Below are positions 15,821 to 45,907 of a stretch of DNA of 64,000 bases, piece after piece. Numbering within the stretch: position 1 is the stretch's first letter; each line of letters opens with the position of its first letter. The notes below the pieces were generated by a model, which did no database searches, had not been told where the DNA came from, and saw only the letters and a program-made list of their open reading frames with translations. This DNA comes from a virus, in IMG/VR virus record IMGVR_UViG_3300031951_000093, positions 15,994 through 79,993 of that record. One strand, given 5' to 3'. Position numbers and translations under genes: made by a program.

Positions 15821-16674
15821 TTGTGATGAAACTATTGCGCGGCGGGTCTTGGGACCCCTTTCCCGAGGACTGCCGCTCGGCTTCCCGCTTCCACGGCGCC
15901 CCCGACCTTGCCGACGACTTCGTCGGGTTCCGCGTGGTCTGCCTCCCGTCACCTTCACCTTCAATCTTTCAACAGATGATTAAACTATTGCGCGGCGGCT
16001 CTTGGGTTAACCATCCCCGGTTCTGCCGCTCGGCCTACCGCGGCAGGGACCACTCGGATTACCGCTACAATGGCTGCGGTTTCCGCGTCACTCAGCCACC
16101 AGGTGCATCCTCGTTTGAAATTACAATGGTTCCCATTTTAGCAGGTGAATTCATGATGGGAACATCAAGCGACCTAAATGAATGGAGCGACGAAGAGCCA
16201 CAACATTTGGTGAATATAAATAGCTTTTCAATAAGCCAAACGCCTATTACTCAGACGCAATGGCGGGCAGTGGCATCATTGCCAAAAGTTGAAATAAATC
16301 TAAAGCTAGATCCATCTTATTTCAAGGGTGATAATCTGCCTGTTGAGAGTGTAAACTGGTATGAAGCAATGGAGTTTTGTCGGAGGTTAAGCGCCGCAAC
16401 GGGAGAAAAATATACACTACCAACAGAAGCGCAGTGGGAATACGCTTGCCGTGCTGGTACTACAACGCCATATAACATAGGGGACAAAATCACAAAAGAA
16501 CAAGCGAACTGTGGCAGCAGTAAAACCACACCAGTGCTCAAGTATCCTCCTAACACCTGGGGATTGCATGATATGCACGGCAATGTTTGGGAATGGTGCT
16601 TAGATGATTGGCACCCTAATTATGAAGGCGCTCCAAATGATGGTAGTGCTTGGCTTGATGGAGATGCAAAATGA
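15817..16674 (+). CDS. FGE-sulfatase/CLec-fold protein, circularly permuted, with two N-terminal DGR-VR-like repeats
   Basis: GEFMMG, LPVESVNW, LPTEAQWEYACRAG, GLHDMHGNVWEWC; RGGSW..CRSA.R..GFRV twice at N-terminus and absent at C-terminus. Confidence 0.88.
   Translation: MIVMKLLRGGSWDPFPEDCRSASRFHGAPDLADDFVGFRVVCLPSPSPSIFQQMIKLLRGGSWVNHPRFCRSAYRGRDHSDYRYNGCGFRVTQPPGASSFEITMVPILAGEFMMGTSSDLNEWSDEEPQHLVNINSFSISQTPITQTQWRAVASLPKVEINLKLDPSYFKGDNLPVESVNWYEAMEFCRRLSAATGEKYTLPTEAQWEYACRAGTTTPYNIGDKITKEQANCGSSKTTPVLKYPPNTWGLHDMHGNVWEWCLDDWHPNYEGAPNDGSAWLDGDAK
15829..16089 (+). repeat. two tandem ~110-bp VR-like repeats (period 153)
   Basis: AAACTATTGCGCGGCGG.TCTTGG...TGCCGCTCGGC...TTCCGCGT in both copies. 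Confidence 0.85.
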
Positions 16675-39511: not shown

Positions 39512-41407
39512 ATGGCAACCATAGGCGACCAACAGCTAGCACTATCTGACGATTATGCCGAAGCATTAGATATGCTAAGCAATCGTGCGGTTGATAATAC
39601 CAAAGCGGCCTTAGTGCGATCACTTAAGCGTACCTTAAAAGATCTGCGCCGATACTATTCAGATTTCATTGATCCTGAGCTGAAAAAATATCAATCAGCC
39701 GATGGCAAGATGCGTCGCCCAATGTCATATTCTATCGCTGATAGTAATGCCAAAATGGTTAAGCTTCTTCAGATTGCGCAAGAATACTTTCCAGAGCAAG
39801 AATTGAATCGTATCACAGCACAATATAAGAAAGATTTTGGCGAAGCCGTACAGCTTGGCGGTGATTTGGGTAAAGAATTGGCGCAATTAGTTGATTCTGA
39901 TGGCAAAGGGAATAGCATGTTTGTTGGCGCCAGTAAAGAAGCTGTGATCGGCGCCGCTAACACAGCATCAGCTTATATCAGGCGCGAAGTTGAAACTTTT
40001 CGTGATGATATTGCACGCATTGTGCAGGATGGTATTGGACGCGGGAAAAGCTCTAAAGCATTAGAGAAAGATATAAGAGTTGCACTATTGGGTGCAAAGG
40101 ATCCAAATAATATCACACCTAAATTAGGTCTTCTTCGCCGGGCTGAATTGATTGCAAGATCTGAGCTTGCTAATGCTTATACTGGTGCGCAAAAAGCAGC
40201 CGCAGCGCGTAATGGGTATAAGTATGGGAGGTTTATTACAACACAAGATGAAAGGACTTGTCCGTATTGCGCATCTAGGCATGGTAAGATATATTTGTTA
40301 AGTGAAATGACTGGAACTTTGCACCCTAGATGCGTCTTGGGTGATACAAAGGTTTCCCCTGGGCCTTTCTCTGCGGTTATGCGCGGCTGGTACCGGGGCA
40401 ACATCGTAACCATAAGACTTGATGATGGGAGCAGCCAATCCGTCACCGGCCATCACCCAGTGTTGACGACTGATGGAATCAAGCCCGCTTGCGCTCTCAG
40501 CAAGGGTGATAATTTGATTGGTGATCGCATTAATATCCTCTCTGATTCCTGCTCTGAACCAGACTTCCACCAGGTGCCAGCCTGCGCCGAGAACATATTT
40601 GCGGCGCTTGTTCAATCTGGCGCCATGCCTGCCGTAAGCGTGCCAGTTTCCCCCTTGGATCTCCACGGCGATGGAGTGTGTATTGATGGCAAGATCGAGA
40701 TTGTAAGGTCCACAAGCCTTCTCGAAGGTTACTGGAAAACCGCGACAGGCAAGAATGCTGGCGAGGGCAATAGCGCGAGTCGATACATGGCTTTTAGACA
40801 GTTCTCTACCTTGCGCCTGCCTGATCTGACGATCCTCGGGCTGGGGGGTGCCGCGTGTGGCAGCATGAGCATTCTGAGTGAGGCGCAATCTGTCCTCGCG
40901 GGAGGATTGAGCCATGCGGAGATACATAGAATCACTACGTCCGCGTGGCGTAATCCCTCGCTCACGCAACCTGTTGTCAATGACACTTCGACTAACAAAA
41001 AATTGCTCGGCAAGTGCTTTGACGCTTTTCCCGGACTCGTACAGACTCACAATATCATCGACATTCAGATGAGCGAATTTTCTGGTCATGTTTACAGTTT
41101 TGAAACATTTTGTGGCTACTATTATACAGGATCCCAGTCAAGGATCGTTAACCAAAATTGCCGATGCAGCCTATCTCCAGTTTCTGATCTTGCAGTAGAA
41201 GAAACTGATCCCGAATTGCGCCGTGAATTATTAAGGGAAGACTTTTGGGAGAAGGAACGGAATAATGTATGGAAAAAGTTTGCCGATACTAAAGAATGGC
41301 CATTTGAAAAGGCTTCTAAAGTATTAGAAGATCACCTTAAAAAGCCATCTGCCAGTGAGAAACGGCTTTATCCTGACATCAAGGAAGCTCCTAAGCCGGT
41401 TGCTTGA
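39512..41407 (+). CDS. MuF/SPP1 gp7-like head morphogenesis protein containing an intein
   Basis: RAELIARSE, DERTCPYC, LHPR|intein|CRC. Confidence 0.9.
   Translation: MATIGDQQLALSDDYAEALDMLSNRAVDNTKAALVRSLKRTLKDLRRYYSDFIDPELKKYQSADGKMRRPMSYSIADSNAKMVKLLQIAQEYFPEQELNRITAQYKKDFGEAVQLGGDLGKELAQLVDSDGKGNSMFVGASKEAVIGAANTASAYIRREVETFRDDIARIVQDGIGRGKSSKALEKDIRVALLGAKDPNNITPKLGLLRRAELIARSELANAYTGAQKAAAARNGYKYGRFITTQDERTCPYCASRHGKIYLLSEMTGTLHPRCVLGDTKVSPGPFSAVMRGWYRGNIVTIRLDDGSSQSVTGHHPVLTTDGIKPACALSKGDNLIGDRINILSDSCSEPDFHQVPACAENIFAALVQSGAMPAVSVPVSPLDLHGDGVCIDGKIEIVRSTSLLEGYWKTATGKNAGEGNSASRYMAFRQFSTLRLPDLTILGLGGAACGSMSILSEAQSVLAGGLSHAEIHRITTSAWRNPSLTQPVVNDTSTNKKLLGKCFDAFPGLVQTHNIIDIQMSEFSGHVYSFETFCGYYYTGSQSRIVNQNCRCSLSPVSDLAVEETDPELRRELLREDFWEKERNNVWKKFADTKEWPFEKASKVLEDHLKKPSASEKRLYPDIKEAPKPVA
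40298..41089 (-). CDS. HTH + Vsr/DUF559-like endonuclease encoded antisense within the intein
   Basis: IVSLYESGKSVKALAEQFFVSRSVIDNRL HTH; PYNLDLA..IAVEIQGGNWH..GWHLVEVW; TATAAT at 41121-41126 (minus). Confidence 0.82.
   Translation of the reverse strand: MTRKFAHLNVDDIVSLYESGKSVKALAEQFFVSRSVIDNRLRERGITPRGRSDSMYLRMAQSSREDRLRLTQNAHAATRGTPQPEDRQIRQAQGRELSKSHVSTRAIALASILACRGFPVTFEKACGPYNLDLAINTHSIAVEIQGGNWHAYGRHGARLNKRRKYVLGAGWHLVEVWFRAGIREDINAITNQIITLAESASGLDSISRQHWVMAGDGLAAPIIKSYGYDVAPVPAAHNRRERPRGNLCITQDASRVQSSSHFT
40331..41158 (+). mobile_element. intein (276 aa)
   Basis: block A CVLGDTKV, block B VTGHHPVLT, block F GHVYSFET, terminal QN with +1 Cys; excision restores HPRCRC. Confidence 0.88.
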
Positions 41408-41835: not shown

Positions 41836-41898
41836 TTGGTTTGTTTCAGGATGCACAATCTCGCGCATCCTAAATTCCACCTATTAACAAAAGGTTTT

Positions 41899-42201
41899 AT
41901 GCCTGATTCTGCATTCCTGCCGGTTGGCAATGGCAATGGCAATGGCTATGGCGATGGCTATGGCGATGGCAATGGTAATGGCGATGGCTATGGCTATGGC
42001 AATGGCTATGGCAATGGCTATGGCTATGGCTATGGCTATGGCGATGGATATGGCAATGGCTATGGCTATGGCTATGGCTATGGCGATGGATATGGCTATG
42101 GCTATGGCTATGGATATGGCAATGGCTATGGCGATAGCAATGGCTATGGCTATGGCTATGGCGATGGCTATGGAACACCATCTATTAGGATTAGAAAATG
42201 A
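41899..42201 (+). CDS. Gly-(Tyr/Asn/Asp) repeat protein
   Basis: ATG 41899, (GX)n tract, ATGA coupling. Confidence 0.75.
   Translation: MPDSAFLPVGNGNGNGYGDGYGDGNGNGDGYGYGNGYGNGYGYGYGYGDGYGNGYGYGYGYGDGYGYGYGYGYGNGYGDSNGYGYGYGDGYGTPSIRIRK
41926..42174 (+). repeat. hexamer tandem repeat GGCDAT (about 40 copies)
   Basis: ggctat/ggcaat/ggcgat units. Confidence 0.95.
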
Positions 42202-44953: not shown

Positions 44954-44989
44954 AATCGGGAAAGCTACAGTATGTAACCCAATCTTCTC

Positions 44990-45874
44990 ATGCCACGCGG
45001 TCGCCGCCGTACTCAATACGTTAGGGACAACTCTGGTCGCTTCGCCTCGACTCCCGGAGGCGGCCCGTCCAAATCATCGCCAGCAGCCGTCAGGAAGGCC
45101 GCTAAGGCCGCTACGCTGAAGGGCGGCAGCCTGGCCGCTCGGACGAGTCTCAAGCGGTCCAAGGCTAAAATGGCAAGCATAGACAAGGCTGATCAGAGTC
45201 TTAAGACTTCACTCTCCAAGCGAGCGCAAAAAGGAGCAGTAACTCGCAGTCAAAAAGCCGCTCGTGCCGCGATCAAATCCAGTCGCAAGCGTATTGAACC
45301 AACAAGCGCAACGCTAAAGCGAAACAGGACGGTAAAAGGATTGCTTTTGGTTGGCATAAAAAGAAAAACTAAGTTGATCAAAGAGCTAACCGCTGCAAAA
45401 GAAAAGAGGCAACAAGAGAAAAAAACCGCCGCTAAAGTTAGCGCTGCAATCAAGAAAGGGCCTGTACCGTCAAAATTAAAATCAAAGACAGCGCCACCAC
45501 CCCCTCCGCCGTCAATATCTAAAAAGTCAAACGATGGCGAACCTGTATTAGTCCAAAAAGAATCTAAAGCCCCTGGATACAAAATACCAAAACCCCCTGC
45601 TGGATATAAAGCATCAGAATCGCCTAGCAAGACGCCATCCAAGGGACGGAGAATGGAGGCACGCATTTCTACTATTAGAACAAACCGATTAAGGAAAGAT
45701 GGATCGCCAGATCGACAATGGAAAGCGTATCAAACCGAAAAGCGAGCGGCAGAATTCTTGAGAGCTGCCGCTAGATTTGCCGAGCGAAAGGGTATTAGCC
45801 TAGATCAGGCATTGCGAAGCGGCCCAAAAAATAGCACGGCAAAAAGCAGGAAAAAGAAAAGAAATAGGTCTTAA
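44990..45874 (+). CDS. highly basic protein, paralog 2
   Basis: MPRGRRRTQYVRDNSGRFAS... Confidence 0.8.
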   Translation: MPRGRRRTQYVRDNSGRFASTPGGGPSKSSPAAVRKAAKAATLKGGSLAARTSLKRSKAKMASIDKADQSLKTSLSKRAQKGAVTRSQKAARAAIKSSRKRIEPTSATLKRNRTVKGLLLVGIKRKTKLIKELTAAKEKRQQEKKTAAKVSAAIKKGPVPSKLKSKTAPPPPPPSISKKSNDGEPVLVQKESKAPGYKIPKPPAGYKASESPSKTPSKGRRMEARISTIRTNRLRKDGSPDRQWKAYQTEKRAAEFLRAAARFAERKGISLDQALRSGPKNSTAKSRKKKRNRS

Positions 45875-45907
45875 CGGGAAAGCTACAGTATGTAACCCAA
45901 TCTTCTC

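Follow-up and report, generated by a model that had tools for sequence, protein, structure and literature searches.

The subject of this analysis is a 64,000-nucleotide stretch of viral DNA, referred to here as the window (positions 15,994 to 79,993 of IMG/VR virus record IMGVR_UViG_3300031951_000093), in which a MuF-like head morphogenesis gene is interrupted by an intein and the intein is overlapped on the opposite strand by a second gene. This arrangement is very probably a mobile class-1 intein that carries an autonomous antisense homing nuclease of the Vsr-like type, with the centre of the element read on both strands. The evidence comes from the anatomy of the locus, the folds of the two products, the pattern of selection on each strand, the avoidance of stop codons, alleles with and without the element, and a nearly identical intein found within diverged exteins. 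In the proposed mechanism, the 171 codons between the two halves of the HINT domain, at the usual endonuclease insertion point, would be read twice. The sense reading would yield a largely unstructured, stop-free filler, made as part of the MuF precursor and then spliced out at the protein level, and the antisense reading would yield an autonomous endonuclease with a helix-turn-helix (HTH) part and a Vsr-like domain related to I-Bth0305I and DUF559. The nuclease gene would begin in block F of the intein and have its own upstream signals within the codons of blocks F and G, so that it would be transcribed in the direction opposite to the late MuF message. In a co-infected cell, its product would most likely cut MuF alleles that lack the intein, near the sequence coding for HPxCRC, and intein and nuclease would then be copied together by recombinational repair.

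The MuF-like gene (39512-41407, plus strand) was predicted to encode a precursor of 631 amino acids. A Pfam search of this open reading frame (ORF) placed Phage_Mu_F at residues 166-273, and PHROG head and minor-head families also matched it. The intein has 276 amino acids (40331-41158, plus strand) and is flanked by an N-extein (39512-40330) and a C-extein (41159-41407), so that the precursor reads ...TLHPR-CVLGDT...RIVNQN-CRCSL, where hyphens mark the junctions. The residues expected of a class-1 intein were present: Cys1, the block B TxxH motif (T39-G-H-H42), a terminal Gln-Asn (Q275-N276), and a Cys at the +1 position. The first Cys, T39, H42, and N276 were invariant in 44 relatives, and the penultimate residue in the window is Gln rather than the usual His. 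The Pfam Intein_splicing match to the window insert was weak (15 bits, under the gathering score), while relatives exceeded the gathering score. The insertion site, a conserved MuF motif of the form HP(N/R)-C(R)C, was common to most of the loci examined, and the intein-less allele corresponding to the window would be CACCCTAGA joined directly to TGCCGATGC. The MuF precursor probably undergoes protein splicing. No nuclease domain was found in the sense insert by the Pfam search of the plus-strand ORF.

Structural prediction separated the sense product into three parts. The N-terminal HINT subdomain (residues 1-66; 40331-40528, plus strand) was delimited by model confidence and by sense-type selection, described below. 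The C-terminal HINT subdomain (residues 238-276, with blocks F and G; 41042-41158, plus strand) also holds the start codon and the candidate -10 element of the antisense gene. Between them lies the filler (residues 67-237; 40529-41041, plus strand). When a profile built from the sense family was run against solved inteins, it matched only at residues 8-77 and 234-272. In a superposition with the Mtu RecA mini-intein, the AlphaFold2 model of the sense product aligned at 106 of 139 residues (Z 12.4, root-mean-square deviation 1.6 Å). Its predicted local distance difference test score (pLDDT) was 91-98 at residues 1-60, dropped past residue 66 or so, and was 89-98 in the C-terminal subdomain. Within the filler it was below 50 at residues 129-232 and 86-94 at residues 78-128. 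The latter segment is the mirror of the nuclease core on the other strand, and since the multiple sequence alignment carries mirrored covariation, its apparent confidence may be an artefact. The predicted sense product is thus a HINT domain of about 105 residues (1-66 plus 238-276) around a filler of mostly low model confidence.

The antisense gene encodes 263 amino acids and runs from 41089 to 40298 on the minus strand, ending in a stop codon that lies in the N-extein, 31 nt beyond the intein. Coordinate arithmetic places it in exact codon register with the intein: sense codon positions 1, 2, and 3 are antisense positions 3, 2, and 1, and sense residue r faces antisense residue 254-r. An earlier sequence-only reading of the window had given these boundaries for the intein and the antisense ORF, and had described the shared register; all of the coordinates proved correct, and the same register was found in nearly every related locus, as shown below. 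That reading had also seen an HTH and a Vsr/DUF559-type nuclease on the antisense strand and no recognisable in-frame nuclease in the sense centre, both of which the domain and structure searches bore out.

The HTH region of the antisense protein (residues ~10-61; 40907-41062, minus strand) was defined by profile matches and predicted helices. On the window ORF itself Pfam gave HTH_7 (E 0.003) and HTH_58, and homologues from metagenomes carried HTH_23, HTH_28, and HTH_7, many of them with precomputed matches to PF18741 as well. Some relatives had two HTH copies. A nuclease domain derived from the PD-(D/E)xK type and resembling Vsr follows (residues ~104-220; 40430-40780, minus strand). A profile built from 53 sequences of the antisense family and run against solved structures matched 3hrl, a DUF559 endonuclease-like protein (8e-6), 3r3p, the catalytic domain of I-Bth0305I (9e-4), and Vsr weakly; it also matched the HTH structures of resolvases and transposases. 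The AlphaFold2 model of the antisense protein had a mean pLDDT of 85, exceeded 90 for most of residues 10-220, and was helical across residues 10-61. The top Foldseek ranks for this model were 1vsr, 1cw0, 3r3p, and 3hrl (probability 0.99-1.00, E 0.0025-0.045), with probability and target-normalised TM score of 1.00 and 0.64 for 1vsr, 0.99 and 0.62 for 3r3p, and 1.00 and 0.76 for 3hrl; no Foldseek match reached E ≤ 0.001. Three conserved nuclease residues are D132 (40694-40696), E143 (40661-40663), and H150 (40640-40642), all on the minus strand, which were found in 53, 50, and 49 of the 53 family sequences, respectively. R162 and several Trp residues were also nearly invariant. The antisense protein probably cleaves the element-less allele site-specifically, as the near-identity of inteins in diverged exteins, described below, indirectly suggests.

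Dual openness was a property of the whole family. The loci compared included 80 from IMG/VR (out of 221 relatives there), 26 from genomes and metagenome-assembled genomes (MAGs), and phage records. In 108 of the 109 loci (82 of 83 plus 26 of 26), with a guanine-plus-cytosine (GC) content of 0.38-0.71, both strands were open in one register over the whole match. In this register the antisense codons TTA, CTA, and TCA are stop codons on the sense strand. From local Leu and Ser usage about 263 of these codons were expected in 71 unique nuclease genes, and 70 of the 71 had none. All four that were observed belonged to a single locus, L069, in which the nuclease gene is free-standing. The window nuclease gene had none, compared to 12.4 expected. 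Because these codons were unseen in 70 of 71 genes, the sense frame is held to be kept open actively and not by accident of composition, and the shared register together with the total avoidance of TTA, CTA, and TCA excludes a chance open frame. High GC content was considered as the source of the open antisense frame and rejected, as loci with a GC content of 0.38-0.50 were equally open, even though 6-17 sense stops per gene were expected in most of them.

Selection on the two strands was distinguished by two analyses. In a codon alignment of 78 sequences, built on the sense translation and therefore biased against an antisense-type result, sense position 3 varied most in both exteins and towards the two ends of the intein (residues 1-50 and 246-276), as is typical of a gene read in the sense direction. 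Across intein residues ~66-245, sense position 1, which is antisense position 3, was the most variable. In 14 phylogenetically independent pairs, changes that were synonymous in the sense frame and nonsynonymous in the antisense frame were counted against the reverse. Sense-synonymous changes predominated in the N-extein (184:21), intein residues 1-66 (131:48), intein residues 238-276 (63:28), and the C-extein (48:4), and antisense-synonymous changes predominated at residues 67-128 (45:83) and 129-237 (64:199). In other words, the centre of the intein evolves as the antisense protein and its ends evolve as an intein.

Several of the checks put forward with the sequence-only reading are contained in these results. 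Homologues kept the antisense frame open, including those of low GC content; the antisense ORF had a Vsr-type fold in the AlphaFold2 model; and the sense insert was not under the stronger selection, the codon-position pattern being of the antisense type. Its description of the locus as a double-coded mobile element agrees with the dual openness, the codon ban, the strand-specific selection, and the signature of transfer described next. Its proposed sense signature, D(L/F)HGDG, fared less well: it is simply what the nuclease motif (I)AVE(I/V)xG looks like when mirrored on the sense strand, and it was rejected as a functional sense motif.

Comparison of the window with two IMG/VR relatives (L004 and L005) pointed to a recent move of the intein. 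There were 175 differences in the 819 nt of the N-extein and 34 in the 249 nt of the C-extein, but only 2 in the 828 nt of the intein, so that an intein of 99.8% identity lies in exteins that are 14-21% diverged. The intein begins at 40331 and stops at 41158, and the nearest extein differences were close by, at 40327 and 41170. This pattern is the mark of a recent transfer in which the co-conversion tracts were very short. Intein-plus and intein-minus alleles were also found in Salmonella Jerseyviruses: phage PK1 has a 272-aa intein between HPN and CRSTT, while ER10 has a contiguous HPNCRSTT and lacks exactly the 272 codons of PK1, the extein protein being 87-91% identical. Among 450 phage records matched at the nucleotide level, only 58 covered at least 80% of the intein-containing gene, and several of the listed records matched both exteins and lacked ~816 bp. 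The GenBank record of PK1 (L001:2426-3235) and similar records list the antisense ORF as a 'hypothetical protein' in the head morphogenesis gene, and other records label the intein-containing MuF 'NAD+--asparagine ADP-ribosyltransferase'. The family also included phages of Pseudomonas, Vibrio, and Haemophilus, and MAGs assigned to more than 10 bacterial lineages.

Two loci differed from the common arrangement. In L069 (2210-3689) the nuclease homologue is a free-standing gene of 328 aa with two HTH copies and four would-be sense stops. It is convergent to a short intein-less MuF gene, which it overlaps by 14 nt at the MuF 3' end; this MuF keeps the HPNCRC motif intact, and its end reads ...HPNCRCCLTFKVD / ...RHPNCRCCLTFKVD. 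The existence of this free-standing homologue shows that the antisense protein belongs to an autonomous gene family. It suggests that a free-standing homing endonuclease gene beside MuF entered a mini-intein in the opposite orientation, and the L069 arrangement may be either the ancestral or an 'escaped' state of the element. In L107 (1307-3601, minus strand) the same type of intein and antisense nuclease lies at another MuF site (...AHRIE-CLPGDN...LYTGN-TIFRTN, with a +1 Thr), and the CRCRC motif downstream of the intein is uninterrupted, which points to a switch of site within the same gene. Separately, the inteins of L082 and L083 begin with Ala instead of Cys in the alignment (AELPGN...) and L067 has a stop near the end of the intein; the alignment may be at fault here, or the copies may be variant or decaying.

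The expression signals of the nuclease gene appear to be embedded in the splicing blocks. The ATG of the window nuclease (41087-41089, minus strand) is the reverse complement of the block F codon for His253, CAT. Relatives used CAT 52 times and CAC 10 times for this His, giving an antisense ATG or GTG. The block F codons for Asp or Asn, Leu (CTC), and Gln spell a GGAGG Shine-Dalgarno (SD) sequence on the antisense strand, in which CTC forms the centre, 8-9 nt above the nuclease start in relatives; CTC was the Leu codon used in 57 of the 68 cases, and at low GC in 20 of 22. Sigma70-like promoters were strongly enriched upstream of the nuclease: a score of at least 10 out of 12 was reached in 18% of loci, against 0.16% of places drawn at random from those loci. 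A perfect TTGACA-17-TATAAT occurred in several of them, at a position that does not vary, where the codons of '...LSSN-C', which give the TTGACA, and of 'LY' spell it out, and in another subclade (L059, L063, L083, L088, L092, L093, and L110) the sequence IITHN-C (ATT ATA ACA CAT AAT TGC) gives the antisense TGTGTTATAAT, an extended -10 element. An embedded promoter is therefore supported for the family, as far as sequence signals can tell.

For the window itself such a promoter is only plausible. The minus-strand TATAAT noted by the sequence-only reading is real (41121-41126, ATTATA on the plus strand); it lies 31 nt above the nuclease ATG, and relatives have -10 elements at the equivalent place. 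The sigma70-type promoter that was built upon it holds up as an enrichment in the family and less well as a feature of the window, in which the TATAAT stands alone and a simple promoter scan called nothing on the minus strand near 41120. We infer antisense transcription, with expression of the nuclease early or in the replication phase.

A further proposal, which we hold to be neither probable nor improbable, is that the codons of the splicing blocks serve in addition as an expression cassette for the nuclease, kept by selection at synonymous sites: the block F His codon would supply the start, the Asp/Asn-Leu-Gln codons the GGAGG SD, and the terminal '...LSSN-C' or 'IITHN-C' codons a consensus -35 or an extended -10. 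The N-terminal HINT subdomain and the nuclease domain, which extends to about residue 220, overlap by ~33 codons that have structure whichever strand is read. In the proposal, intein residues 34-66, which face nuclease residues 188-220, would comprise at least 33 codons for parts of two folded domains, and sense residues 78-128, opposite the nuclease core, may fold as well.

Several observations weigh against the favoured reading of a mobile intein with an antisense nuclease. The PF18741 (REase MTES_1575) match to the antisense ORF had 25.9 bits (E 1e-5), below the gathering threshold of 38.2, and the protein is best described from its sequence as a relative of that family rather than a certified member. 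The Glu upstream of the conserved Asp, kept in 45 of 53 relatives, has been replaced by Ala106 in the window sequence and in those closest to it. For the last Asp of the EDxHD motif the family offers nothing conserved, and a conserved Arg162 is nearby; these equivalences of position rest on the profile alignment. Upstream of the nuclease ATG in the window there was no SD sequence and no convincing -35 element. Finally, the central ratio of synonymous changes, at 1:3, is weaker than a mirror of the 9:1 in the exteins. The weaker ratio implies that the nuclease is under looser constraint, or that the sense filler is not wholly free. As the sequences are related, counts pooled over them are not fully independent.

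Taken at their strongest, the replaced Glu, the missing SD and -35, and the sub-threshold Pfam match would mean that the window gene is a decaying relic, with an inactive nuclease in an intein that formerly homed by it and now persists as a spliced insert. The sequence-only reading had allowed for a degenerate nuclease on account of the missing Glu, which is indeed absent. The whole Ala106 subclade, however, is still under antisense-type purifying selection, the ORF is full length, and D132, E143, and H150 are intact. An intein of 99.8% identity in exteins 14-21% diverged requires recent transfer, and this argues that the nuclease works despite Ala106. As for the SD, an SD-like sequence was found upstream of only about one third of the long plus-strand ORFs in the window, and the MuF gene itself has none, which suggests a host with largely SD-independent initiation. 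Because most genes of this phage lack an SD, its absence upstream of the nuclease is no argument against translation. A relic is on these grounds improbable.

A mobile element with a working homing nuclease also accounts better for the data than an active antisense protein that resides in the intein and acts mainly as a DNA-binding regulator or as a nuclease against competitors, which we consider very improbable. The N-terminal HTH and the free-standing L069 gene beside MuF would suit such a role, and free-standing phage nucleases such as those of the T4 seg and mob genes can exclude relatives. On the other hand, in 108 of 109 loci the nuclease is found with a single type of element, and that element in a single type of gene, the precise presence or absence of the intein and the sharply bounded tract of identity are as homing predicts, and the closest characterised relative, I-Bth0305I, is a homing endonuclease. 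Homing and exclusion of intein-less relatives are, moreover, two outcomes of one cleavage. The least credible alternative, that the sense centre is a functional in-frame intein domain and the antisense ORF a by-product of codon usage, could point to the sense frame being open everywhere, to the confidently modelled residues 78-128, and to the small codon-position contrast across residues 66-125, but it is contradicted by the central codon-position and synonymous-change patterns, which fit the antisense frame, by independent hidden Markov models and solved structures that match the antisense protein and not the sense one, by the pLDDT below 50 at residues 129-232, by the L069 homologue, which has no overlying sense ORF, and by the possibility that the confident sense segment, a mirror of the nuclease core, merely reflects mirrored covariation.

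The mobile intein with an antisense nuclease has precedents, and its novelty had been overestimated in the sequence-only reading. Antisense homing endonucleases in inteins go back to 1998: those of the LAGLIDADG type, in Synechocystis DnaX and others, are attributed to Gorbalenya 1998 and Gogarten 2002 in a 2025 preprint (Gosselin, Arsenault & Gogarten, bioRxiv 10.1101/2025.01.02.630785). As described there, these are also separate ORFs on the opposite strand inside an intein; they differ from the window gene in that the latter is Vsr-like with an HTH, and in their host genes. The same text reports VSR-like antisense endonucleases in the minor-capsid inteins of actinophages, with an HHpred match to 3R3P, and states that these minor capsid inteins all have non-canonical homing endonucleases. 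By that account the actinophage elements share with the window an unsplit intein in a MuF or minor capsid gene and a Vsr-like nuclease that lies antisense in the endonuclease region, and MuF genes of Gordonia phages were among the tblastn matches. Unlike those phages, the window is from a metagenome phage of ~46% GC that is not an actinophage. The preprint makes no use of the word 'promoter' in its main text, and in the sections consulted we found no analysis of fixed register, a codon ban, or strand-specific selection, nor any treatment of a splicing-block cassette or of codons that serve two folds. The additions made here are a family far broader than the actinophage cases, a register common to all its members, a codon ban without exception in the antisense copies, the strand-specific selection, the free-standing L069 copy, and the block F/G expression cassette.

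I-Bth0305I, characterised by Taylor 2011 (PMC3239194), and the other EDxHD enzymes resemble the window nuclease in the Vsr-type catalytic fold, the conserved Asp and general-base His, and an N-terminal HTH or NUMOD-like part (PMC3239194; PMC2677866). They are phage-borne and associated with self-splicing elements. The EDxHD enzymes sit in group I introns or between the halves of split inteins, on the same strand, whereas the window nuclease is antisense; in it Ala stands in place of the first motif Glu, nothing conserved corresponds to the last Asp, and the similarity is at the level of profiles only (E 9e-4). Dassa 2009 (PMC2677866) described fractured genes in which same-strand Vsr-like homing endonuclease genes lie between the halves of split inteins. 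These are similar in that a free-standing Vsr-like gene is lodged at the endonuclease site of a phage intein, but there the host is split into two ORFs, while in the window the sense frame continues across all 276 codons. A fractured-gene or split-intein reading of the window was rejected, as the sense frame runs on unbroken in the window, as it does in 108 of 109 loci, and the genes of PMC2677866 are on the same strand only. In the ShiLan insertion (PMC11855218), which hides an HNH endonuclease that is out of frame, the host frame is likewise open through the insertion and a real homing nuclease is produced from another frame. There, however, the nuclease is read from the host gene's own strand, only shifted in frame, and the insertion, which lacks a splicing domain, stays in the host protein. 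The 'intein-containing capsid morphogenesis protein' of a Jerseyvirus was noted in PMC8425127, which does not mention the antisense gene.

Other features of the window lie further downstream. Just beyond the MuF gene (41836-42201, plus strand) is a 121-aa ORF composed almost entirely of G-(N/D/Y)-G-Y repeats (GNGNGYGDGYG...), with other frames of the repeat also open. An identical 20-nt sequence, gtatgtaacccaatcttctc, was found at 44970-44989 and 45888-45907, directly upstream of the ORF starts at 44990 and 45908. This repeat could be a shared control element of late genes or part of a duplicated gene head.

The element is a clean natural example of long antisense dual coding, with ~250 codons in which selection can be measured for each strand. 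From it one sees how an intein can be colonised by a free-standing homing endonuclease that leaves the host gene unbroken, at the cost of an absolute ban on three codons. Inteins with a central domain of 'unknown' function merit a check of the opposite strand, and antisense ORFs in 'head morphogenesis' genes merit being called as genes rather than dismissed as shadows. Cultivable Salmonella Jerseyviruses with intein-plus alleles, as in PK1 and LPSE1, and intein-minus alleles make homing, splicing, and antisense expression directly testable. If the splicing-block codons do serve as an expression cassette, a selfish nuclease would be expressed independently of, and against, the late MuF transcript.

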